Shown: positions 9,888 through 20,780, counted from the first letter of the stretch. The stretch is DNA of 64,000 nt from an uncultured Christensenella sp. (GCA_964478025.1 CAYZGK010000004.1:8273-72272), one strand, 5' to 3'. Made by a program: numbers and translations. The notes: a model not told the origin generated them from the letters alone.

Positions 9888-10814
9888 ATGAAAAATAATA
9901 TAAAAGGACCTATATTGCTATTTATTACCGCAATTATTTGGGGTGTTGCCTTTGTTTCTCAAAGGTCTGCTGCCTCATATAATTTAGGTGCTTTTACATT
10001 TAATGGAATTAGATATTTATTAGGAGCTATTGTTTTAATACCTTTTGTAATTTTTATAAGGACAAGAAAGAATGGTAGTTATAGTATGCTTAGTGTAGAT
10101 GAAAAGAAAATCTATAATAAAAATACAATAATAGGTGGTATAGTTTGTGGATTGTTTTTGTGTATAGCATCAAGTTTTCAACAATTTGGAGTTGAAGGAT
10201 TATCATCTGGGAAAACAGGATTTATTACTGCCTTATATATTATTTTTGTGCCATTACTTGGATTATGTTTTAAAAAGAAATGTTCTATATTTGTCTTTAT
10301 TGCAGTGCCTGTTGCTCTTGTTGGAATGTATTTTTTATGCATGGTAGGGGAAAGTTTTGCAATAACAAAGTATGAAGTTTATGTTTTTTTATGTGCAATA
10401 TTCTTTACTTTTCAAATAAGTGCTGTAGATTATTTTGCAATTAAGGTTGATTGTGTTGCTATGGCTTGTATTGAGTTTACAGTAACTGGCTTGATAAGTC
10501 TTATAGCAATGTTTATATTTGAAAAACCAGAAATAGAAACTATAAAATCTTGTTATGTTCAAATCTTGTATTCAGGAATAATGTCTTCTGGAGTTGCATA
10601 TACATTACAAGTTGTAGGTCAAAAACATACAAATCCAACGCTCGCTTCGCTTATTATGAGTCTTGAGTCTACTATTTCAGCAATAGCAGGTTGGATTATA
10701 TTAAAAGAAAATTTATCTTGGCAACAATGGCTTGGATGTGGAATTATGTTTATAGCAATAATAATTGCACAAATACCAATGAAAAATAAAAAAACAGGGG
10801 AATTAAATCAATGA
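9888..10814 (+). CDS. DMT/EamA-family transporter
   Basis: IIWGVAFVSQR, FNGIRY, GKTGFITALYIIFVP, SGVAYTLQVVGQK, LIMSLES; ATG 9888 preferred over TTG 9882. Confidence 0.92.
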   Translation: MKNNIKGPILLFITAIIWGVAFVSQRSAASYNLGAFTFNGIRYLLGAIVLIPFVIFIRTRKNGSYSMLSVDEKKIYNKNTIIGGIVCGLFLCIASSFQQFGVEGLSSGKTGFITALYIIFVPLLGLCFKKKCSIFVFIAVPVALVGMYFLCMVGESFAITKYEVYVFLCAIFFTFQISAVDYFAIKVDCVAMACIEFTVTGLISLIAMFIFEKPEIETIKSCYVQILYSGIMSSGVAYTLQVVGQKHTNPTLASLIMSLESTISAIAGWIILKENLSWQQWLGCGIMFIAIIIAQIPMKNKKTGELNQ

Positions 10815-11410
10815 AAGCCGCAATAGTACTAAATTCACAAGCACCAATTGCAGATATTAAAGAAGATGTAATTATCGCAGCAGATAGGGGATATATTCTT
10901 GCATTAGAGCAAAATAAAACTCCTACAATAGTTATTGGAGATTTTGATTCATCAAATGCTCCAGAAAATTTAAAGATAATAAAACTAAATGTGGAAAAAG
11001 ATAATACAGATGGTGAAGCTTGTATTGATTGGGCCAAAGATAACGGCTTTAATGAAATTACTATATATGGAATAACATCTGGAAGAATTGATCATCAATT
11101 AGCTAATATTTCTCTTTTAGCCTATGGTGATAAACTAGGATTAAGAGTAGTGGGAGAGGATAGGGATTGTAGAATCTTATATTTAAAGAAAGGTAAGTAT
11201 TCTTTTGACATGAATATTAATCAAGAGTTTTCTATTTTTCCATTTGATGGTACTGCCATTATAGATAACGGGATAGGGTGTAAATATCCAATAAATAATC
11301 TTAAATTACTATCTTATTTAGGCGGTAGAGCTATTTCCAATAAAGCATTAAATAATAAAGTATCTTTTGATGTAATAGATGGTAGCGTTTTATTAATTAT
11401 TAATAAATAA
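10811..11410 (+). CDS. thiN: Thiamine pyrophosphokinase
   Basis: IAADRG, IGDFDS, EKDNTDGE, GRIDHQLANI motifs. Confidence 0.92.
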   Translation: MKAAIVLNSQAPIADIKEDVIIAADRGYILALEQNKTPTIVIGDFDSSNAPENLKIIKLNVEKDNTDGEACIDWAKDNGFNEITIYGITSGRIDHQLANISLLAYGDKLGLRVVGEDRDCRILYLKKGKYSFDMNINQEFSIFPFDGTAIIDNGIGCKYPINNLKLLSYLGGRAISNKALNNKVSFDVIDGSVLLIINK

Positions 11411-11431
11411 TTAGAATAATAATATTAAGTT

Positions 11432-11459
11432 CACAACCGGACAATTTTGTCCGGTTGTG
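11432..11459. promoter_or_regulatory. Palindrome copy 1 (candidate XRE operator)
   Basis: CACAACCGGACAA-TT-TTGTCCGGTTGTG, perfect 13-bp arms. Confidence 0.7.
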
Positions 11460-11543
11460 TTCTTCTTTATGCCCTTCTTAAAGAGTGTCTTATATATCAA
11501 AATGTAGGTATACAAAAATCTCACTTTATAAGGAGGGAATATT

Positions 11544-12047
11544 ATGAAAAAGATAGGAGCAGGTGGAAAGCTTCAGAATTATGATTCAAAAGGTAGATAT
11601 TGTAAAAATAACTATTTTGATTTTACGCCACCTGCATTTACTAAAAAAGAAATAAGAAGGCGTAAAGAAGAAAAACGTCGGCAAGAACTTTATGAAAAAG
11701 CAAAATGCAGTGATGATGCTTATATATTTGATGTATATTTAGCTTTAGAAAAAGCCATTCCTGGTGTTGTTATTGGTGTAAATGAAAAATTGTTAGATGA
11801 AAATATAGGTAAACCTCGTGAATTTGACATAATTACTAAAAAATGCATAATAGAAGTAAAGTCTAAAGCTGTTAAATGTGAAAGTCAATTACTAGCTCAA
11901 CTTAGATATACTAATTTACATAAGATAAAACATTTCTTGTATTCTCCAACTATCACTAGAGTGGCAAAATATGAATATGAGAAAAATGGAATTGATGTAA
12001 GTAAAACATTAGATGAATTAGTAAGAAAAGTAAAGGAGATGCAATAA
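11544..12047 (+). CDS. Putative PD-(D/E)xK nuclease toxin, allele T1
   Basis: REFDIITKKCIIEVKS (D95, E104, K106), downstream Q helix; RBS AAGGAGG; stop overlaps next ATG (TAATG). Confidence 0.7.
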   Translation: MKKIGAGGKLQNYDSKGRYCKNNYFDFTPPAFTKKEIRRRKEEKRRQELYEKAKCSDDAYIFDVYLALEKAIPGVVIGVNEKLLDENIGKPREFDIITKKCIIEVKSKAVKCESQLLAQLRYTNLHKIKHFLYSPTITRVAKYEYEKNGIDVSKTLDELVRKVKEMQ

Positions 12048-12418
12048 TGAGAGATATATTTTTTGTTACAAAAGAACCAATGGTTTTAGAAGATTGCTTT
12101 GAAGCTATAAAGAAAGTTTATAAATCTGCCGATACTGGTATTGGTGTTATATGTTTAGATAAGTCAGCTCCAAAATCAGCATATATGTGGTTTCCATCAT
12201 TAAAAAAATACGAACCAGGTGAGGTTTGGGAAGAGGATGATTTGAAAGATGTGCCTGATGATTATAATTATTTTACAACATTAAATTATCATCTAACGTG
12301 TGTGACTAAAAATTTTGTTAGGGCTTTACAGCCTTTGTATCCAGATATGTTAATACAAGATGATGATTCTAAGGTATATACTATCGACGAATATTTAAAT
12401 TGTAAGTTTGATCATTAA
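12047..12418 (+). CDS. Putative cognate immunity protein, allele I1
   Basis: Small acidic protein translationally coupled to the nuclease; paralog of four other copies. Confidence 0.65.
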   Translation: MRDIFFVTKEPMVLEDCFEAIKKVYKSADTGIGVICLDKSAPKSAYMWFPSLKKYEPGEVWEEDDLKDVPDDYNYFTTLNYHLTCVTKNFVRALQPLYPDMLIQDDDSKVYTIDEYLNCKFDH

Positions 12419-12464
12419 ATAATGATTAATAAATGAAATAATAAATTACTAGAGGAATTATTTT

Positions 12465-12490
12465 ACAACCGGACAATCTTGTCCGGTTGT
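12465..12490. promoter_or_regulatory. Palindrome copy 2
   Basis: ACAACCGGACAA-TC-TTGTCCGGTTGT. Confidence 0.7.
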
Positions 12491-12575
12491 GTTCTTGTTT
12501 ATGCCCTTCTTAAAGAGTGTCTTATATATCAAAATGTAGGTATACAAAAATCTCACTTTATAAGGAGGGAATATT

Positions 12576-13082
12576 ATGAAAAAGATAGGAGCAGGTGGAA
12601 AGCTTCAGAATTATGATTCAAAAGGTAGATATTGTAAAAATAACTATTTTGATTTTACGCCACCTGCATTTACTAAAAAAGAAATAAGAAGACGTAAAGA
12701 AGAAAAACGTCGGCAAGAACTTTATGAAAAAGCAAAAAATAGTGATGATGCTTATGTGTTTGATGTGTACTTAACTTTAGAAAAAGCAATGCCGGGTGTT
12801 GTTATAGGCGTAAATGAATATAGATTAGATGAAAATATAGGTAAACCCCGTGAATTTGACATAATCACTAAAAAATGCATAATAGAAGTAAAGTCAGAAA
12901 AGGCTGCAAAGAAAGAAAAACAATTATTAGCACAATTAAAATATGCCAATTCGCATAAGTTAAAACATTTTTTATATTCGCCTACTATTACTAGAGCAAG
13001 GAAGTATGAATATGAGAAAAATGGAATTAATGTAAGTAAAACATTAGATGAGTTAATTAGAAAACTAAAGGAGATGCAATAA
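12576..13082 (+). CDS. Putative PD-(D/E)xK nuclease toxin, allele T2
   Basis: Same N-terminal 54 aa and catalytic motif as T1; C-terminal half diverged. Confidence 0.7.
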   Translation: MKKIGAGGKLQNYDSKGRYCKNNYFDFTPPAFTKKEIRRRKEEKRRQELYEKAKNSDDAYVFDVYLTLEKAMPGVVIGVNEYRLDENIGKPREFDIITKKCIIEVKSEKAAKKEKQLLAQLKYANSHKLKHFLYSPTITRARKYEYEKNGINVSKTLDELIRKLKEMQ

Positions 13083-13453
13083 TGAGAGATATATTTTTTG
13101 TTACAAAAGAACCAATGGTTTTAGAAGATTGCTTTGAAGCTATAAAGAAAGTTTATAAATCTGCCGATACGGGTATTGGTGTTATATGTTTAGATAAGTC
13201 AGCTCCGAAATCAGCATATATGTGGTTTCCATCATTAAAAAAATATGACCCAGATGAGTTTTGGGAAGAGGATGAATTAGAAAATATACCAGATGATTAT
13301 AATTATTTTACAAATTTAGAATATCATTTATCTTGTGTGTCTAAAAATTTTGTTAAGGCATTACAGCCTCTATATCCAGATATGCTTATACAAGATGATG
13401 ATTATGTAGTATATACCATCGAAGAATATTTAAATTGTAAGTTTGATCATTAA
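13082..13453 (+). CDS. Putative immunity protein, allele I2
   Basis: First 55 aa identical to I1, rest diverged; TAATG coupling. Confidence 0.65.
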   Translation: MRDIFFVTKEPMVLEDCFEAIKKVYKSADTGIGVICLDKSAPKSAYMWFPSLKKYDPDEFWEEDELENIPDDYNYFTNLEYHLSCVSKNFVKALQPLYPDMLIQDDDYVVYTIEEYLNCKFDH

Positions 13454-13499
13454 ATAATGATTAATAAATGAAATAATAAATTACTAGAGGAATTATTTT

Positions 13500-13525
13500 A
13501 CAACCGGACAATCTTGTCCGGTTGT
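13500..13525. promoter_or_regulatory. Palindrome copy 3
   Basis: Identical to copy 2. Confidence 0.7.
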
Positions 13526-13610
13526 GTTCTTGTTTATGCCCTTCTTAAAGAGTGTCTTATATATCAAAATGTAGGTATACAAAAATCTCACTTTATAAGG
13601 AGGGAATATT

Positions 13611-14117
13611 ATGAAAAAGATAGGAGCAGGTGGAAAGCTTCAGAATTATGATTCAAAAGGTAGATATTGTAAAAATAACTATTTTGATTTTACGCCACCT
13701 GCATTTACTAAAAAAGAAATAAGAAGACGTAAAGAAGAAAAACGTCGGCAAGAACTTTATGAAAAAGCAAAAAATAGTGATGATGCTTATGTATTTGATG
13801 TGTATTTAGCTTTAGAAAAAGCAATGCCTGGTGTGGTTATAGGTGTAAATGAATATTTATACGATGAAAATATTAAAGATAAAAGGGAGTTTGACATAAT
13901 TACTAAAAAATGCATAATAGAAGTAAAGTCAGGCGATGTAGTAAAGAGGGAGAAACAATTTTTGGCACAGCTAAAGTATACAAAGTTTCATGGGGTACAA
14001 TATTTTATTTTTGCTCCGGATTTAAATAGAATTAGAACTTATCAATATACCAAAGATGGATTTAACATAAGTAAAACGTTAGATGAATTAATAAGAAAAG
14101 TAAAGGAGATACAATAA
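13611..14117 (+). CDS. Putative PD-(D/E)xK nuclease toxin, allele T3
   Basis: Same N-terminus and motif; C-terminal half identical to T4. Confidence 0.7.
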   Translation: MKKIGAGGKLQNYDSKGRYCKNNYFDFTPPAFTKKEIRRRKEEKRRQELYEKAKNSDDAYVFDVYLALEKAMPGVVIGVNEYLYDENIKDKREFDIITKKCIIEVKSGDVVKREKQFLAQLKYTKFHGVQYFIFAPDLNRIRTYQYTKDGFNISKTLDELIRKVKEIQ

Positions 14118-14485
14118 TGAGAGATATATTTTTTGTTACAAAAGAACCAATGATTTTAGATGATTGTTATATAGAAATAAAGAAAGTTTATAAAAAAAGC
14201 GAAAAAAGCAATTGTAAAATTAGTTTATATGGAGCTCCAAAATCAGCATATATGTGGTTTCCTTCATTAAAAAAATATGACCCAAGTGAATATTGGGGTG
14301 AAGATGAATTGGAAAATATACCTGATGATTATAATTATTTTACAAATCTTGAATATCATCTAACGTGTGTATCTAAAAATTTTGTTAGGGCTTTACAACC
14401 ATTGTATCCAGATATGCTAATACAAGATGATTATCTAAAAGTATATACAATTGAAGAATATTTAAGTTGTAAGTTTGACCATTAG
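14117..14485 (+). CDS. Putative immunity protein, allele I3
   Basis: Paralog of I1/I2; TAATG coupling. Confidence 0.65.
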   Translation: MRDIFFVTKEPMILDDCYIEIKKVYKKSEKSNCKISLYGAPKSAYMWFPSLKKYDPSEYWGEDELENIPDDYNYFTNLEYHLTCVSKNFVRALQPLYPDMLIQDDYLKVYTIEEYLSCKFDH

Positions 14486-14528
14486 AACTATGAATAATGA
14501 ATAAAATAAAGACTTTCTAAAGAAAAAA

Positions 14529-15176
14529 CTACTTTTTTTGATTTTTTATTTTATTTTTAAATTTTGTTTTATATTCATTTTCGTATTCTTTAGGATCCTC
14601 TCCATTGTAAACTAATAGTTTATTAAGTCTTTCTATTGATGGAAATAGGGAGTCTTCATAATTTCTGAAATTTTGAATTAATTTATCAAAATCTTTTATG
14701 CTAATTGTTGGATCTTCGTCTCTTATATCTACACAATAATTTTTATTTTCAAAATTATCATTAAGTCTATTTAAGTATATTTGTGTTTCCTTATCTAAAC
14801 ACTCAAAAATATATTCTTCACCATTGGGTAAATTTGGATTTTTGATTTTTTTAGGAATAATAACAAGTGAAAACATAAGTCTATTTAGTCTTTTAAATGA
14901 TGCTTCCCAGGTATATAGGTTGTCATCAGATGTCTCTTTATTAAGAATTAGATAATCAAGTGAAACATTATATAAATCAGCTAGAGCAACTAGAAAATCG
15001 ATTTTTGGGGAACATTTTCCTTGTTCATATCGTCTAATAGTTCTTTCGTCAATTATTAAATAATGTTTATTTTGTAATTTTTCTATAACATTATCTATTG
15101 TATATTGTTTTTCTTTTCTTAATATTCTAAGTCGTTTACCTACATTTTTTCTAAAGTTTTCATCTGAAATAAACAT
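14529..15176 (-). CDS. XRE/Cro-C1 HTH transcriptional regulator with C-terminal extension
   Basis: VGKRLRILRKEKQYT...TIRRYEQGKCSPKIDFLVALADLYNVSLDYL; RBS AGGTAGGTG. Confidence 0.92.
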   Translation of the reverse strand: MFISDENFRKNVGKRLRILRKEKQYTIDNVIEKLQNKHYLIIDERTIRRYEQGKCSPKIDFLVALADLYNVSLDYLILNKETSDDNLYTWEASFKRLNRLMFSLVIIPKKIKNPNLPNGEEYIFECLDKETQIYLNRLNDNFENKNYCVDIRDEDPTISIKDFDKLIQNFRNYEDSLFPSIERLNKLLVYNGEDPKEYENEYKTKFKNKIKNQKK

Positions 15177-15197
15177 TTTTCACCTACCTTTATATTG

Positions 15198-15246
15198 ATT
15201 TTACCAAATCGGACATTTTTGTCCAGTAGTGTATGAGAAAATGTCC
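15198..15246 (-). promoter_or_regulatory. Candidate XRE promoter overlapped by degenerate palindrome
   Basis: Minus strand TGGACA(15225-15220)-16 nt-TAAAAT(15203-15198) with extended TG; GGACA-TTTT-TGTCC at 15211-15224; extra TGTCC 22 bp away. Confidence 0.65.
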
Positions 15247-15311
15247 TTCTTTTGGTTCATAACGAAGAACATAATATTTATGACAAAAATTTATTTTAAG
15301 GAGAAAAGGCT

Positions 15312-15818
15312 ATGAAAAAGATAGGAGCAGGTGGAAAACTTCAGAATTATGATTCAAAAGGTAGATACTGTAAAAATAACTATTTTGATTTTACGCCACC
15401 TGCATTTACTAAAAAAGAAATAAGAAGACGTAAAGAATAAAAGCGACGACAAGAACTTTATGAAAAAGCAGAAAAAAGTGATGATGCTTATGTGTTTGAT
15501 GTATATTTAGCTTTAGAAAAAGCTATGCCCGGTGTAGTTATAGGAGTAAATGAGTATTTGTTTGATGCAAACATAGGAGCAAATAGGGAGTTTGACATAA
15601 TTACTAAAAAATGCATAATAGAAGTAAAGTCAGGCGATGTAGTAAAGAGGGAGAAACAATTTTTGGCACAGCTAAAGTATACAAAGTTTCATGGGGTACA
15701 ATATTTTATTTTTGCTCCGGATTTAAATAGAATTAGAACTTATCAATATACCAAAGATGGATTTAACATAAGTAAAACGTTAGATGAATTAATAAGAAAA
15801 GTAAAGGAGATACAATAA
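15312..15818 (+). pseudogene. Nuclease toxin allele T4, nonsense mutation
   Basis: ATG 15312 homologous to T1-T3; GAA>TAA at 15438-15440; rest of frame intact. Confidence 0.88.
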
Positions 15819-16185
15819 TGAGAGATATATTTTTTGTTACAAAAGAACCAATGAATATAGATGATTGCTATAAGGAAATAAGTAAAGTTTATAAAAAGGC
15901 AAAAAAATATGATGATGAAATTAGTATTTTAGGTGCTCCAAAGTCTGCTTTTATGTGGTTTCCATCATTAAAAAATATGATCCTAGTGAATATTGGGGTG
16001 AGGATCAGTTAAAAGATATACCAAAAGATTATAATTATTTTACAACCTTAAATTATCATTTAACGTGTGTAACTAAAAACTTTGTTAGAGCTTTACAAAC
16101 ATTGTATCCAGATATGCTGATACAAGATGCTTATTTGAAAGTATATAAAATTGAAGAATATTTAAATTGTAAGTTTGACCACTAA
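15818..16185 (+). pseudogene. Immunity allele I4, -1 frameshift in A-tract
   Basis: A6 at 15970-15975 where the other four paralogs have A7; both halves match the family. Confidence 0.88.
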
Positions 16186-16209
16186 TAATGTGAGTAAAGG
16201 AAAAATAAA

Positions 16210-16578
16210 ATGAGAGATATATTTTTTGTTACAAAAGAACCAATGAATGTAGAGGATTGCTATAAGGAAATAAGTAAAATTTATAAAAAAGCAGAAAAAC
16301 TAAATGAACAAATATCTTTAGATAATTATCCTAAATCGGCCCTTATGTGGTTTCCATCATTAAAAAAATATGATCCAAGTGAATATTGGGGTGAAGATGA
16401 ATTAGAAAACATACCGGAAGATTATAATTATTTTACAAATCTTGAGTATCATTTAACTTGTGTATCTAAAAATTTTGTTAGGGCATTACAACCATTGTAT
16501 CCAGATATGCTAATACAAGATGCTTATTTGAAAGTATATACAATTGAAGAATATTTAAATTGTAAATTTGACCATTAA
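16210..16578 (+). CDS. Orphan immunity allele I5
   Basis: Full-length paralog with no upstream nuclease gene. Confidence 0.7.
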   Translation: MRDIFFVTKEPMNVEDCYKEISKIYKKAEKLNEQISLDNYPKSALMWFPSLKKYDPSEYWGEDELENIPEDYNYFTNLEYHLTCVSKNFVRALQPLYPDMLIQDAYLKVYTIEEYLNCKFDH

Positions 16579-16764
16579 AATAATTGTAAATTTTTTATGC
16601 CAAATTTTATTCTTTTATTGTCTAAAACTATGTTTTTTGAAACTTTATTATGTAATAATAGTTGATAAAATTTCGTAAAAGTGGTATCACATAAAATGTA
16701 TTATAGTGCTCAATTTGTAAAAGCTAAAATTTATGATTAAGCACATAATTTGAAAAAGGAATAA

Positions 16765-18432
16765 ATGAGTAAAAAAAGATGCTCGATTTTGTATATTTTT
16801 ATTCTATGTGTGCTATTTGTTACTAGTATTATTTTTTTGAACGCTTGTTCGTCAGAAAATTTAGTTTCCATTACTATAAGTGGTGATACAGAAATATTGG
16901 CAGGTAATTTTGATTTCTCAAATTATATGGTTGAAGCAACATACGATACAGGAGAAGTTAAAAAAGTTGAATTAACAAAAGATATGCTATCTTCTGAGGA
17001 TTATTTAAAAGTTTTTTCAGATGGAGATAAAACTTTAACTATTAACTATGGTGGTTTAACTTGTGAACTTAACTTAAAGGTTTGTTTATATGAGTTTACA
17101 GATTTGAAATTTAATGATATAGAAACAACATATTCAGGCTCATATGTAACAGCAGAAGTTGTTAATAATTATCCTGAAGGAACTACAGTTTACTACCCAT
17201 CTGGGAATAGTTTTTTAAATGCTGGAACTTATGAAGTTACAGCTATCGTTTCAAGAAGAAACTATATTACACAAACATTAACAGCAACAGTTGTTATTAA
17301 TCAAGCAGAGTACGATATGTCAAATGTCTCATTTATAGATACTACTTTTGAATATGATGGGAAAGAGCATTCAACAGTAATTACAGGGGATTTACCAAGT
17401 GGTGTAACTGTAACATACCCGGATAATAACAATAAAAAAACAAATGCTGGCACTTATGATGTTAAAGCTTGTTTTTCATTTGATGGAAACAACTATAAAC
17501 AAATTCCAGATATGACTGCTAAAATGACTATAAATAAGAAAAAATATAATACTGAGAATTTAACATTTAGCAGTGAAAAAATAACATATGATGGAAAGGA
17601 ACATACATTGCAAGTTTCTAATTGCCCATCAAATGTTAGAGTAGAATATCAAGTAGGAATGTATAAAAATGATAAATACACTGATATAACAGGCAGTAAA
17701 TTAGTTGATGCTGATACATATTATTTTACGGCAAAATTTTATTCAAATGATGTAAATTACGAAGATATTCCTGATATGCATGCTCAGTTAATTATTGATC
17801 AAGCAATCTATGATACAAGTATAATTTCAATGGATAGTAAGGAAGTGGATTATAATGGAAAACCTCAAACTCTTACTCCATATATGCTAGATGGTTCTAA
17901 AGATCTTCCAAGCGACTTATACATTTTGTATAGTTATTATACAAAAGATGGAAAAGAAATTATAGAATCATATGATGAAGATAATTCACCTATTTATGCT
18001 CAATCGGTTACTGATTATGGAACTTATGTGTATACTGTTCAGCTTTGGAGTAAAGATGAAAATTATTATGTAGATAGTGAATTAACTGCAACATTAATAA
18101 TTAATAAAATAGATTATAATGTAGATGATGTTTCAGTTGATGATTATAAATATACAGGAGAGAAAATAAGTGTAACTGTTAATAATATTCCTTCTGATTT
18201 AAGTGGAAATAAATTAGGAGTGAAACTTTCATATTTCACTGAAAAGCCAGCTTTGGATGAAAATGGCAAATATAATTACATAACAGACAACGAAGGGAAC
18301 CCAGTAACTGGTGTAACTGATGAGGGTGATTACTTTGTTATGATAGAATTTACGGATCAAAATAACGAAAACTATAACGAATTAAAACCTATAGTAAAAT
18401 CCTTTAAGATAACAAAGGAGGCAAGTGTATGA
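16765..18432 (+). CDS. Lipoprotein with Ig-like domain and MBG-like repeats
   Basis: Lipobox LNAC (Cys28); repeated YDGKEH...NAGTYxV...NYxxIPDMxAxLxI units; ATGA overlap with VirD4. Confidence 0.8.
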   Translation: MSKKRCSILYIFILCVLFVTSIIFLNACSSENLVSITISGDTEILAGNFDFSNYMVEATYDTGEVKKVELTKDMLSSEDYLKVFSDGDKTLTINYGGLTCELNLKVCLYEFTDLKFNDIETTYSGSYVTAEVVNNYPEGTTVYYPSGNSFLNAGTYEVTAIVSRRNYITQTLTATVVINQAEYDMSNVSFIDTTFEYDGKEHSTVITGDLPSGVTVTYPDNNNKKTNAGTYDVKACFSFDGNNYKQIPDMTAKMTINKKKYNTENLTFSSEKITYDGKEHTLQVSNCPSNVRVEYQVGMYKNDKYTDITGSKLVDADTYYFTAKFYSNDVNYEDIPDMHAQLIIDQAIYDTSIISMDSKEVDYNGKPQTLTPYMLDGSKDLPSDLYILYSYYTKDGKEIIESYDEDNSPIYAQSVTDYGTYVYTVQLWSKDENYYVDSELTATLIINKIDYNVDDVSVDDYKYTGEKISVTVNNIPSDLSGNKLGVKLSYFTEKPALDENGKYNYITDNEGNPVTGVTDEGDYFVMIEFTDQNNENYNELKPIVKSFKITKEASV

Positions 18433-20780
18433 AGAAAAAATTAGAGTCTATAGGTATTATCGCATTAGTTAATCTAGTTATATCAAATATAGTAGTATTT
18501 GCTATACTTAGAACTTCAGTTAATTTTGGTGATTATCTAAGATACGAGATTTTCTTATTTGTATATTTAATGCTATTTTCAAATGTATTTTTCTCAAACA
18601 AGTTTTGTAGTGGAAAAGCTCAAGAATGGTTATTCTTCTTGTCAGTTTCTTTCTTAGTATCAAGTTTGCTTGCATACATTTTATATTCAATTATTATAAG
18701 TGATTGGAAAATGGACCAAATAGCATGGGTGGAAAGTATTAAATCTATAATTAATGTAGACTTTATGTTCTATGGTATAGCTCTTGCATTTTTAATTGCT
18801 TTTGTCGCTCTATATTGTGGTGTATTTGATAGAGACATCTTAAGATTTGTAAGAACTTCTGGCCTTATTGGACAAGGAAAAATAAAGAGTATTGAAGCAA
18901 ACCTTGAAAATTCACGTTGGATGAACCAAGAAGAAAAAGAAAAGAATTTTAAGAAATATTCTTACACAAAATTAGATAGTGTAAATAAAGATGGTATTCC
19001 TGTAATGGCACAAATGAATAGAAAAGGTAAAGATGAAACTATTATGTTTAATTCTCCTTGTCACTCAATTATCATTGGTGCAACAGGTTCTGGTAAGACA
19101 ACAACATTTGTAAGTCCAATGATTCAAATATTAGCTTCTACAAACGCTGGTTCTTCTATGGTAATGACAGACCCTAAGGGAGAATTATTTGCACTTCATT
19201 CTAAATATCTTCAAGAAAGGGGATATGATGTAAAAGTTATTGATTTAAGAGATACATATTCATCATATAGATGGAATCCACTTGATGATATATGGGATAG
19301 TTATAGAAAATATGCAGAGGCTCATAACAATGTTTATTTACACAAAGATAAATTACCAAAAGACAAACCTTTAGGAAGCAAAAAGGAAAGTTTTGAAGGT
19401 AAGGATTCTTGGTATGAATTTGAGGGAAAAGCTTATGCTGAATATCAAGACCTTGTAAATGCAATTAAAGTTTTCAAGAGAAAAACTTATGATGAAGTTT
19501 ATGAAGATTTAAATGACTTAGTATCAGTTTTAATTCCAATAGAAAATGAAAGAGATCCTATGTGGGAAAAAGGTGCAAGAAGTATTGTACTTGCTACTCT
19601 TTTAGCTATGCTTGAAGATAGTGAAAATGAAGCTTTAGGTATGACTAAAGAAAAGTTTAATTTCTTTAACATGGCTAAGATATTACAAAACTCAACAGAG
19701 GATTATAAGGAACTTAGAAGATATTTTGCAGGAAGAAGTCAATTATCTAAAGCTTTCTCATTATCAAAACAAGTTTGTGATGCAGCAGAATCAACACGTG
19801 CCTCATATATGTCAGTTGTATATGAAAAATTAACATTATTTAATGATGCTGGTATTTGTGGATTAACATCATCCTCAGATTTTAAACCTGAAGATTTAGC
19901 TTTAAGACCAACTGCATTATTCTTAAAGATTCCAGATGAAAAAACAACAAGACATAATTTGGCTGGAATATTTGTATTAAATTTATATAAACAACTTATA
20001 AAGGTAGCTTCGCTTAGAGAGGACTTATCTTTACCTAGAAATGTTTATTATATACTTGATGAGTTTGGTAACATGCCAAAGATTGAAAACTTCGATAAGA
20101 TGATAACAGTTGGTAGAAGCCGTAAGATTTGGTTTAACATGATTGTTCAATCATATTCACAATTAAATAACGTTTATGGAGATAAGGTTGCAGATATCGT
20201 AAAGAGTAACTGTGGAGTAAAGATGTTTATTGGTTCTAATGATATGACAACATGTAAAGAATTCTCTGAACTTTGTGGAAATATAACAGTTGTTACAAGA
20301 TCTACAAGTGGTAGTGACATGGATAAATCTATAAATGTTTCAACTCAAACTCAAGTTAGACCTCTTATTTATCCATCTGAACTTCAAAGACTTAATCATG
20401 GTTCAGATATAGGTCACTCAATTATAGTAACATTTGGTAATTATCCATTTAAGAGTTATTTTACCCCTAGTTTTAAGGTTCCTTTATATAAAATGGGTAC
20501 AATGAATACAGAGTTTTTAAATGAAAGATATTTTGATGAACAAGCTATCTTTTATGATATAAGCAAGAGAAACAGTTTAGTCTTTGGAAAACAAAAAGAA
20601 GTAGCTGTTAAAAATAAAGGAGTTAAATTAACTCAAAACAAGAAAGAAGGTCTAGAGAATCAAAATAAAGAGGATCTAGCTCGTGATACTCAATTGTTTG
20701 ATAGATTTATGAAGTTTAAGAAAGAACATCCAGATCTTACTGAAAACGAAATATTTGATAGATTGGAGGGCTTGTCTTAG
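18429..20780 (+). CDS. VirD4/TraG-like type IV coupling protein with N-terminal TM region
   Basis: GATGSGKT, MTDPKGEL, RWNPL, YYILDEFGN, GRSRKIW, IVQSYSQLxxVYG. Confidence 0.95.
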   Translation: MKKKLESIGIIALVNLVISNIVVFAILRTSVNFGDYLRYEIFLFVYLMLFSNVFFSNKFCSGKAQEWLFFLSVSFLVSSLLAYILYSIIISDWKMDQIAWVESIKSIINVDFMFYGIALAFLIAFVALYCGVFDRDILRFVRTSGLIGQGKIKSIEANLENSRWMNQEEKEKNFKKYSYTKLDSVNKDGIPVMAQMNRKGKDETIMFNSPCHSIIIGATGSGKTTTFVSPMIQILASTNAGSSMVMTDPKGELFALHSKYLQERGYDVKVIDLRDTYSSYRWNPLDDIWDSYRKYAEAHNNVYLHKDKLPKDKPLGSKKESFEGKDSWYEFEGKAYAEYQDLVNAIKVFKRKTYDEVYEDLNDLVSVLIPIENERDPMWEKGARSIVLATLLAMLEDSENEALGMTKEKFNFFNMAKILQNSTEDYKELRRYFAGRSQLSKAFSLSKQVCDAAESTRASYMSVVYEKLTLFNDAGICGLTSSSDFKPEDLALRPTALFLKIPDEKTTRHNLAGIFVLNLYKQLIKVASLREDLSLPRNVYYILDEFGNMPKIENFDKMITVGRSRKIWFNMIVQSYSQLNNVYGDKVADIVKSNCGVKMFIGSNDMTTCKEFSELCGNITVVTRSTSGSDMDKSINVSTQTQVRPLIYPSELQRLNHGSDIGHSIIVTFGNYPFKSYFTPSFKVPLYKMGTMNTEFLNERYFDEQAIFYDISKRNSLVFGKQKEVAVKNKGVKLTQNKKEGLENQNKEDLARDTQLFDRFMKFKKEHPDLTENEIFDRLEGLS

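Follow-up and report, generated by a model that had tools for sequence, protein, structure and literature searches.

A palindrome copied with tandem T-I cassettes in an uncultured Christensenella sp. is most likely the operator of the neighbouring XRE regulator

Introduction

Cro/CI-type repressors of the XRE family, such as P22 c2, the 434 repressor and ImmR of ICEBs1, regulate their own synthesis through palindromic operators that overlie their promoter, and restriction-modification (R-M) systems have controller (C) proteins, such as C.AhdI and C.BclI, that act at C-boxes. ImmR, BldD, P22 c2 and the C proteins are dimeric palindrome binders. The three-component toxin-antitoxin module paaR-paaA-parE has a separate HTH regulator, which is first in the operon. 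In the PeSL cassettes of T4-type phages, a stem-loop terminator and a promoter are repeated before each small gene unit (Arbiol et al. 2010, PMC2839356).

The window analysed here, a stretch of 64,000 nucleotides from an uncultured Christensenella sp., includes an array of paralogous cassettes, each with a T gene for a PD-(D/E)xK-like protein and an I gene for a small partner, together with one gene for an XRE-family regulator (XRE). Like the Cro/CI-type repressors, the array XRE has an HTH_3/HTH_31 domain, with ImmR and P22 c2 among its closest structures, and the candidate site consists of inverted half-sites spaced by one helical turn and lies over the -35 and spacer of the regulator's own promoter between divergent promoters. 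Unlike them, it has a C-terminal domain of ~130 aa for which the fold search gave no structural match, it lies beside neither an ImmA-type protease nor a phage or ICE lysogeny module, and it putatively controls a PD-(D/E)xK-like protein and its partner from a single full palindrome and an orphan half-site, not from three tandem operators.

As with the C proteins, an HTH regulator and palindromic sites would set the expression of a nuclease gene, and a second, promoter-proximal site suggests concentration-dependent control. However, the array XRE is 215 aa long and divergent, whereas C proteins are ~80 aa and co-transcribed with the nuclease; no methyltransferase is found in any XRE-T-I module, and the site is not a C-box. 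The XRE-T-I module is not a member of the R-M controller/C-box class. The array resembles the PeSL cassettes in its repeated predicted stem-loop terminator and promoter, and in that closely related strains differ in the number and order of units, as recombination between the repeated modules may have produced. It differs in being chromosomal and not phage-borne (a viral scan gave no relatives), in having a stem-loop that putatively arose from a repressor operator and retains it, and in consisting of paralogous T-I pairs instead of unrelated ORFans. The paaR-paaA-parE module likewise has a dedicated regulator beside a toxin-like and inhibitor-like gene pair, but the array XRE is divergent, T and I belong to no described family, and toxin and antitoxin roles for them are putative.

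Results

The array and its palindromes

Cassettes 1-3 are encoded on the plus strand: cassette 1 (11544..12418) with T1 of 167 aa, which has a PD-(D/E)xK-like fold, and I1 of 123 aa; cassette 2 (12576..13453) with T2 of 168 aa and I2 of 123 aa; and cassette 3 (13611..14485) with T3 of 168 aa and I3 of 122 aa. The XRE gene (14529..15176, minus strand) follows, and cassette 4 (15313..16185, plus strand) adjoins it, with one in-frame TAA in T4 and a frameshift in I4. An orphan I5 gene lies at 16210-16578.

The initial annotation described perfect palindromes of 26-28 bp at 11432, 12465 and 13500, and these are present as described. Copy 1 (11432..11459, plus strand) is an extended palindrome, CACAACCGGACA-ATTT-TGTCCGGTTGTG, with 12-bp arms and the loop ATTT, and is read as a putative operator and terminator hairpin. 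Copy 2 (12464..12491, with limits at 12464/5-12490/1; plus strand) is (T)ACAACCGGACA-ATCT-TGTCCGGTTGT(G) with the loop ATCT, and copy 3 (13499..13526, with limits at 13499/500-13525/6; plus strand) is identical to it. Copy 4, at 15210..15225 with no strand assigned, is the XRE-proximal putative core operator, CGGACA-TTTT-TGTCCA. This copy had been placed at 15207-15232 with 22 of 26 positions matching; in register it spans 15205-15230 and 19-20 of 26 match. The core CGGACA-N4-TGTCCG is thus perfect at 11438, 12470 and 13505 and has one mismatch at 15210.

A pattern search of the window allowing up to two mismatches returned exactly these four sites against 0.12 expected. The genome-wide motif scan that had been suggested as a check likewise gave only the array sites: the exact GGACA-N4-TGTCC occurs at four places in the whole 1.6-Mb genome, all inside the array, and matches with one mismatch elsewhere have neither palindrome flanks nor a second TG(T/C)CC box 22 bp downstream. 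In the array, this second box stands at exactly that distance in all four copies (11448/11470, 12480/12502, 13515/13537 and 15220/15242), in agreement with the earlier observation. The ATG, given previously as ~90 nt beyond the palindrome, begins ~85 nt past its end, or 111-112 nt past its start. Since I5 has no palindrome, the motif marks each T promoter unit but not every gene of the array.

The four copies arose by duplication. Hence copy number alone is no evidence of function, which is supplied instead by conservation between lineages. The array copies have also been homogenised by duplication and gene conversion, and their identity is no sign that the distal copies still bind XRE.

XRE and the predicted promoters

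The N-terminal HTH of XRE, which resembles those of ImmR, BldD and P22 c2, is recognised by Pfam (HTH_31, 4.7e-08; HTH_3, 1.4e-06), and its structural matches also include C.AhdI and C.BclI. Across the family, the recognition-helix segment (I/V)RRYE hardly varies. An XRE paralogue is present on contig C6, and its upstream region has no such palindrome.

A promoter scan predicted an XRE promoter on the minus strand (15198..15225), consisting of the -35 TGGACA (15225-15220), a 16-nt spacer and the TG-extended -10 TAAAAT (15203-15198), which bears out the earlier placement of a palindrome copy over this -35. The right arm of the 15210 copy, read on the minus strand, is the -35 itself, and the other arm falls inside the spacer. 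The half-site centres of yGGACA-N4-TGTCCr are ~10 bp apart, about one helical turn.

On the T4 side, box 2 (TGTCCTT; 15242..15248, plus strand) repeats the right half-site in direct orientation at a distance of 22 bp and adjoins the -35 position of T4. The predicted T4 promoter (15247..15275, plus strand) has a poor -35, TTCTTT (15247-15252), a 17-nt spacer and the -10 CATAAT (15270-15275), a register kept in all lineages. A similar arrangement at 11470..11503 (plus strand) comprises box 2 TGCCCTT (11470-11476) and a putative T1 promoter with the -35-like TTCTTA (11475-11480), a 17-nt spacer and the -10-like CAAAAT (11498-11503). Box 2 of the copy 2 unit is at 12502-12508, downstream of the copy 2 tail, and that of the copy 3 unit at 13537-13543, downstream of copy 3 (both plus strand). 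The T start positions in the window are uncertain because these promoters are predicted, their -35 elements are poor and they have no TG extension.

Conservation of the XRE-T-I module

Eleven independent XRE homologues (34-48% identity, unrelated contexts) are each divergent to a gene for a PD-(D/E)xK-like protein of ~170 aa followed by a gene for a protein of ~125 aa. When eight XRE homologues of 34-93% identity were looked up, all eight were divergent to a T homologue of ~170 aa, with a gene for 125-133 aa (approximately) after it wherever the contig reached that far. The same arrangement was obtained when starting from T homologues or from a DNA-only motif scan, and the genes around the module differ in every lineage. 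The DNA-first scan of metagenomes gave one true module and two distinct GC-rich chance matches.

All 11 modules have a common layout. It runs from the extended -10 of XRE to yGGACA-N4-TGTCCr, the right arm of which is the XRE -35, and after 16 nt to the box 2 CGCCCTT; on the T side there follow a poor -35 separated by 17 nt from GATAAT, and then the T gene. The predicted XRE -35 coincides with the right arm, with a TG-extended -10 16-17 nt away, in 10 of the 11 lineages, the exception being L023, where the other arm is used.

The anchored comparison of intergenic regions covered 10 independent lineages, the eleventh having come from the metagenome scan. Mean pairwise identity was 0.91 in the arms, half of which would be expected to be conserved anyway as the XRE -35, and 0.77 in box 2, where the core CCT is invariant; it was 0.69 in N4, 0.41 in the spacer of 16 nt and 0.48 elsewhere. 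The spacings between elements are fixed, and the XRE -10 (TGnTATAAT-like) and the T -10 (GATAAT) keep a constant register. In L018 both arms have changed symmetrically and read AGACA and TGTCT. A palindrome copy accompanies every T in the related arrays checked (L026 and L028-L031). In the sole relative without an XRE orthologue, a single case, the palindrome has decayed (TGTCC changed to TGCCC; -10.6 kcal/mol) and the I gene is frameshifted.

The arm identity of 0.91 against 0.41-0.48 in the flanks, and the same layout in other lineages, indicate that the 15210 copy is the ancestral form and that copies 1-3 are derived; it is the canonical form kept across independent modules and not, as first described, a degenerate one. 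Beyond this genus, the hairpin folds weakly (-7 to -12 kcal/mol), is followed by no U tail and stands upstream of the two predicted starts, from which it follows that the conserved core would act as DNA.

Other known elements were also considered. A LexA box was rejected because the genome has no further sites and the consensus is different (GAAC-N4-GTTC in Gram-positive bacteria), and an oriT because the site is conserved in modules without T4SS genes nearby.

Terminator-like hairpins

Copies 1-3 were called terminator-like by the terminator scan and copy 4 was not. Their 12-bp stems contain 6-7 GC pairs, enclose a 4-nt loop and fold with -19 to -24 kcal/mol (z -6 to -8), and copy 1 is 15th among the 603 terminator-like hairpins of the genome; copy 4 and the copies from outside the genus form no stable GC-rich terminator stem. 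The T-rich tail of hairpin 1 (11460..11469, plus strand) is TTCTTCTTTA and that of copy 2 is TTCTTGTTTA; both are 7/10 T, but the T runs of copies 1-3 are interrupted (TTCTTSTTTA).

Hairpin 1 starts 22 nt past the stop codon of the thiamine pyrophosphokinase (TPK) gene, and hairpins 2 and 3 start 46 nt past the stops of I1 and I2, respectively. Five members of the genus without an array have unrelated GC-rich hairpins at the same spot after TPK. The arm extension is never found in the XRE-proximal copies of four strains and is present in all distal copies of the species lineage (the window and L028-L031). On these sequence features, copies 1-3 probably act as both operator and intrinsic terminator. 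An Rfam scan of 10500-17000 gave no known RNA family, the only matches, to mir-374 and manA, being sub-threshold and due to chance.

Discussion

The GGACA-N4-TGTCC palindrome is most likely the operator of the neighbouring XRE regulator. The initial annotation had proposed an autoregulated XRE operator copied with each cassette to give a mini-regulon, and phylogenetic footprinting in 11 modules with diverged flanks supports this reading. The ancestral unit would have had three genes, with XRE divergent from a two-gene operon of T and I. Between the two predicted starts, the palindrome would contribute its right arm as the XRE -35 and its left arm to the spacer of the XRE promoter, and an XRE dimer bound there would block access of RNA polymerase, repressing the XRE gene itself. 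Box 2 (CGCCCTT or TGyCCTT), a third half-site two helical turns off, abuts the weak predicted T -35, and its position may couple T-I expression to XRE occupancy; the best guess is repression through cooperative binding, with activation also possible.

Cassette duplication would have carried the palindrome, box 2 and the promoter along, so that one XRE gene could control all cassettes and the regulon would be confined to the array. Within the genus, the copies distal to XRE have acquired six further complementary pairs on each arm together with a T-rich spacer of 16 nt, by which the operator would have become a strong intrinsic-terminator-like hairpin. Hairpins 1-3 would then end transcription of TPK, I1 and I2 and insulate each cassette. 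Taken as a whole, an XRE operator that was copied with the cassettes and whose distal copies are also terminator-like hairpins is a likely explanation of the locus.

A terminator hairpin had been put forward as an alternative, and it stands as an added property of copies 1-3 but not as a rival to the operator. That the hairpins are nothing but intrinsic terminators, with the 15210 copy a decayed relic, its TGGACA -35 there by chance and no protein recognising the palindrome, is unlikely. Copies 1-3 do fit the terminator pattern, are among the most stable such hairpins of the genome and lie just past stop codons, at the position of the TPK terminator in relatives. However, the core is kept in the 11 independent modules with a weak fold and no U tail, between divergent promoters and hence transcribed in neither direction; the extended form is confined to this genus, and a terminator stem has no reason to keep GGACA/TGTCC or box 2 at a fixed 22 bp. 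Binding of the operator by a protein other than XRE, either I as in type II antitoxins, a T-I complex or a host factor, is improbable. The antitoxin binds the operator in many toxin-antitoxin modules, and T and I, being without known domains, could conceivably bind DNA, but within the module a DNA-binding domain can be recognised in XRE only, the site overlaps its own -35 in every lineage, and its near-invariant recognition helix agrees with the invariant half-site. A host factor is disfavoured by the variety of hosts and contexts and by the absence of any further site from the genome.

The palindrome could also be a site-specific recombination site, attC-like or tyrosine-recombinase-like, used for insertion, excision and shuffling of cassettes. 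The homology of unit 1 to the other units does begin at the left edge of the palindrome, as originally noted, and cassette number and order vary between strains. Nevertheless, such a role is very improbable. No recombinase is encoded nearby, the single tyrosine recombinase of the genome (its only PF00589 match) being on contig C3 and the array on C4, and in the independent array L026 the duplicated unit starts ~30 nt left of the palindrome, which places the boundary outside it. Moreover, the cassettes are paralogous T-I pairs with their own conserved promoter layout and not unrelated promoterless genes, the position of the palindrome relative to both promoters is fixed in single-cassette modules, and homologous recombination between near-identical 5' regions accounts for the variation of the array.

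The XRE operator reading, if true, would explain how one regulator gene controls a tandem array of diversifying nuclease-like cassettes, and would show in nature how an operator became a terminator at places where read-through from upstream genes has to be stopped. A testable cis-regulatory map (operator, auxiliary half-site and two promoters) is obtained for a conserved, unnamed module, and the XRE protein and its putative 16-bp site offer an evident way to turn on the cassettes in a laboratory host and find out what T and I do. A search of the literature for an XRE operator of the GGACA/TGTCC type and for dual use as operator and terminator found nothing relevant. The XRE-T-I module is undescribed and occurs in many gut Clostridia, and its regulatory logic is ordinary. 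Only tentatively might it be regarded as an undescribed module with a lambda- or C-protein-like switch, in which XRE, bound to the palindrome, shuts itself off, the orphan half-site at the weak T -35 sets nuclease level or timing, and the operator has, in this genus, been exapted into a terminator. Each diversifying cassette would then be insulated and at the same time subject to one regulator, and one DNA element would have two functions, at the DNA and the RNA level.

T and I had no match in PADLOC, NCBIfam, Pfam or PHROGs, and a PDB sequence search with the T profile gave nothing meaningful; the fold search with T returned matches to the PD-(D/E)xK nucleases EndoMS/NucS and AF1548 alone, and these were weak (E about 1e-2). 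Scans of metagenomes and of viruses with the T alignment found nothing. The T homologues number about 150, and none of them contains a Pfam domain. Among 74 genomes of the family 2 have T, as do 2 of 401 from the order, and the class sample contained, besides the genome itself, one weak T match only; thus, the module is rare and sporadic.

Palindromes and genes of the array

The sequence CGGACA-N4-TGTCCG is perfect at 11438, 12470 and 13505 (copies 1-3) and has one mismatch at 15210 (copy 4). These were the only sites in the window when up to two mismatches were allowed, against 0.12 expected. No further GGACA-N4-TGTCC site is present in the whole 1.6-Mb genome, and the one-mismatch sites found elsewhere in it have neither the palindrome flanks nor box 2, the second TG(T/C)CC, which each of the four copies carries at the same distance, 22 bp downstream. 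As recognised in the initial annotation, copies 1-3 are perfect palindromes of 26-28 bp in front of cassettes 1-3, and box 2 accompanies every copy. The arms of copies 1-3 are ACAACCGGACA and TGTCCGGTTGT. Copy 4, which has core arms only (5-6 bp), had been placed at 15207-15232 with 22/26 matches; the copy is real, but its in-register position is 15205-15230, with 19-20/26 matches.

The array consists of co-oriented pairs of a T gene, for a PD-(D/E)xK-like protein, and its partner gene I. Cassettes 1 (11544-12418), 2 (12576-13453) and 3 (13611-14485) encode T and I proteins of 167-168 and 122-123 aa, respectively; they are followed by the XRE-family gene (14529-15176, minus strand), the inactivated cassette 4 (15313-16185) and an orphan I gene (I5, 16210-16578), which has no copy of the palindrome. 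T4 contains one in-frame TAA (15438-15440). Since an intact 168-aa T lies beside XRE in close strains (loci L011, L028 and L031), this inactivation is strain-specific. I4 is frameshifted at 15970-15985 by loss of one base from an A7 tract (TTAAAAAAATATG to TTAAAAAATATG), and the same tract is one base short (TTGAAAAATATG) in the single I gene of a sister species (L010, 6655-6670), which could reflect recurrent slippage, phase variation or homopolymer assembly error.

I3 and XRE are convergent and separated by 43 A/T-rich nucleotides (14486-14528; AAAAAACTACTTTTTTT). No GC-rich hairpin was found in this interval; hence, transcription of cassette 3 may run antisense into XRE. Downstream of the array, this species lineage always has genes for an MBG-domain surface protein and a coupling protein of the VirD4/TraG type (16765-20780; 4042-7985 in L031). 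Both genes are present in the window and in L031, and the L028 contig extends to the MBG gene only. The association with a T4SS cluster is local, since no T4SS genes lie close to the XRE-T-I modules of other lineages.

Conservation of the XRE-T-I module

A search with the XRE protein gave 43 homologues of 31-93% identity. Every homologue for which DNA was fetched has an adjacent, divergent gene for a ~170-aa T homologue, followed, wherever the contig is long enough, by a gene for a ~125-133-aa protein. The same arrangement was recovered when the search was started from T homologues, and the chromosomal contexts are unrelated. Thus, XRE-T-I is a conserved, sporadically distributed three-gene module. 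It is rare in representative genomes (2/74 of the family and 2/401 of the order), and the viral collection yielded none.

The XRE protein carries an HTH_31/HTH_3 domain. Structural matches to its N-terminal domain in the AlphaFold model (mean pLDDT 85) are ImmR, BldD, P22 c2 and C-proteins; the C-terminal ~130 aa gave none. Family members show almost no variation in the recognition-helix segment (I/V)RRYE, in parallel with the invariant half-site. T and I have no match in Pfam, NCBIfam, PADLOC or PHROG. The model of T (mean pLDDT 88.7) has an alpha-beta-beta-beta-alpha-beta core with invariant D95, E104 and K106, and its best structural matches, which are weak, are the PD-(D/E)xK nucleases EndoMS/NucS and AF1548. 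Ahead of this core, the N-terminal ~55 aa (K-GAGG--QNY---GRY; 11544-11705 in the window) are modelled with lower confidence (pLDDT 64-77) and hardly vary between lineages whose overall identity is 40-45%. A 178-aa XRE-family paralogue is encoded on another contig of the same genome (G000 C6:8610-9041) and shares the HTH and part of the linker/C-terminal region (E = 4e-20). Upstream of it there is no GGACA palindrome, and the stretch read shows no T-I partner.

A putative operator conserved across lineages

Ten independent XRE-T intergenic regions were anchored on the palindrome and share a fixed layout: the XRE extended -10 (reverse complement of TATTATATCA), 4 nt, yGGACA-N4-TGTCCr, 16 nt, CGCCCTT (box 2), TTCTyT, 17 nt, (TGn)GATAAT, a ribosome-binding site and the T start codon. 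Pairwise identity averages 0.91 for the palindrome arms, 0.77 for box 2 (CCT invariant), 0.69 for N4, 0.41 for the 16-nt spacer and 0.48 for the remaining positions. In one lineage (L018) both arms are altered symmetrically, to AGACA and TGTCT. A DNA-only metagenome scan for the composite motif recovered one more true module, flanked by XRE, T and I, and two distinct GC-rich chance matches.

The initial annotation had placed the palindrome over a predicted XRE -35 (TGGACA), and the promoter scan found this site in the window. Read in the direction of XRE, the right arm is TGGACA, which matches 5/6 of the -35 consensus, and a TG-extended -10 of the predicted promoter follows at 16-17 nt in 10 of 11 lineages; in the exception, L023, the other arm (TTGTCC) apparently serves as the -35. 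Outside the genus, hairpin stability is low (-7 to -12 kcal/mol), there is no U tail, and the palindrome is situated upstream of both predicted starts; on these predictions, its conservation must therefore act at the DNA level. The pattern is the phylogenetic footprint of a putative operator at which the regulator of the module itself would bind, in a position suited to repression of the XRE promoter.

The earlier proposal of an XRE operator is thus backed by arm conservation, fixed geometry and co-occurrence with XRE-T-I. An XRE dimer would bind the palindrome, and occlusion of the -35 by bound XRE would lead to autorepression. Box 2 may take part at the T promoter, where, given the weak -35 elements, activation is possible as well as repression. 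XRE repressors with a palindromic operator over their own promoter are well known; XRE-T-I would be a new case of that kind serving an undescribed module, with the probable lineage-specific conversion of operators to terminators as its one unusual feature.

Putative operator copies in arrays

In the strain-level relatives checked, a copy of the motif precedes every T gene, including those of cassettes on both sides of XRE, and in L026, an independent array of a distant lineage, the palindrome, box 2 and promoter are also copied to the second T. Hence, a single XRE gene appears to face several putative operators. The genome scan shows the predicted regulon to be confined to the array, in agreement with the suggestion of a mini-regulon arising from an operator copied with each cassette. 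The gene order is T-I, T-I-I, XRE, T-I, T-I-I in L028 (ERZ27279230 contig) and XRE, T-I-I, T-I-I in L031 (JGI Ga0565119_001609), the orphan I genes lying directly after complete pairs without a palindrome of their own. L026 (3733-5884) has XRE, T, ~750 nt with an I-like start and no called gene, and T-I.

Four strains of the species lineage have two palindrome classes that are never mixed. XRE-proximal copies have short arms followed by GTAGTG. XRE-distal copies have 12-bp arms and a T-rich 16-nt spacer (TTCTTCTTTA, TTCTTGTTTA, TTATTCTTTA or TTCTTATTTA), with invariant stems and variable loops (ATTT, ATCT, AATT or AACT). The left extension ACAAC is already found in other lineages (e.g. L033) as part of the XRE promoter spacer, and this comparison indicates that the right flank of the distal copies has changed to complement it. 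Copy 4, described initially as degenerate, is instead the ancestral form by cross-lineage comparison.

Terminator and recombination-site readings

A terminator hairpin, proposed as an alternative to the operator, is in part borne out by prediction. Copies 1-3 scanned as terminator-like, folding at -19 to -24 kcal/mol (z -6 to -8), and among the 603 terminator-like hairpins of the genome-wide survey copy 1 is in 15th place. Hairpin 1 begins 22 nt past the stop codon of the thiamine pyrophosphokinase (TPK) gene, and hairpins 2 and 3 begin 46 nt past those of I1 and I2. The spot after TPK normally carries a terminator, as five array-less members of the genus have unrelated GC-rich hairpins there. 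No co-oriented gene that would need a terminator lies upstream of the XRE-proximal site, and this site lacks the arm extension, which suggests that the putative distal operators were exapted to serve as intrinsic terminators and would also insulate each cassette. However, the L026 palindrome (-6.7 kcal/mol, no T tail) and the out-of-genus copies are not terminator-like; the predicted terminator property would therefore be lineage-specific, and the putative operator universal.

A recombinase-like site, suggested because homology of unit 1 begins at the palindrome, is not supported. The duplication in L026 begins ~30 nt to the left of the palindrome, within what remains of an XRE promoter and RBS, and units 2 and 3 of the window likewise keep an XRE -10 relic (TTTTAC) on that side. 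The cassettes are paralogous and have promoters of their own, and the genome encodes a single tyrosine recombinase, on another contig. The two L026 copies are 100% identical from the palindrome to the T ATG and diverged in their coding parts. Homologous recombination between units, whose 5' parts are near-identical, suffices to explain the differing array lengths of strains, and in this the arrays resemble the PeSL modules of T4-type phages (PMC2839356).

A sister species lacking XRE

In the sister species (G073, L010), a single cassette with a frameshifted I gene follows TPK, and no XRE orthologue was found anywhere in the G073 genome. Of the three substitutions in the palindrome of this cassette, one changes the core from TGTCC to TGCCC, and the folding energy is just -10.6 kcal/mol. 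This single case fits decay of the palindrome after loss of the regulator.
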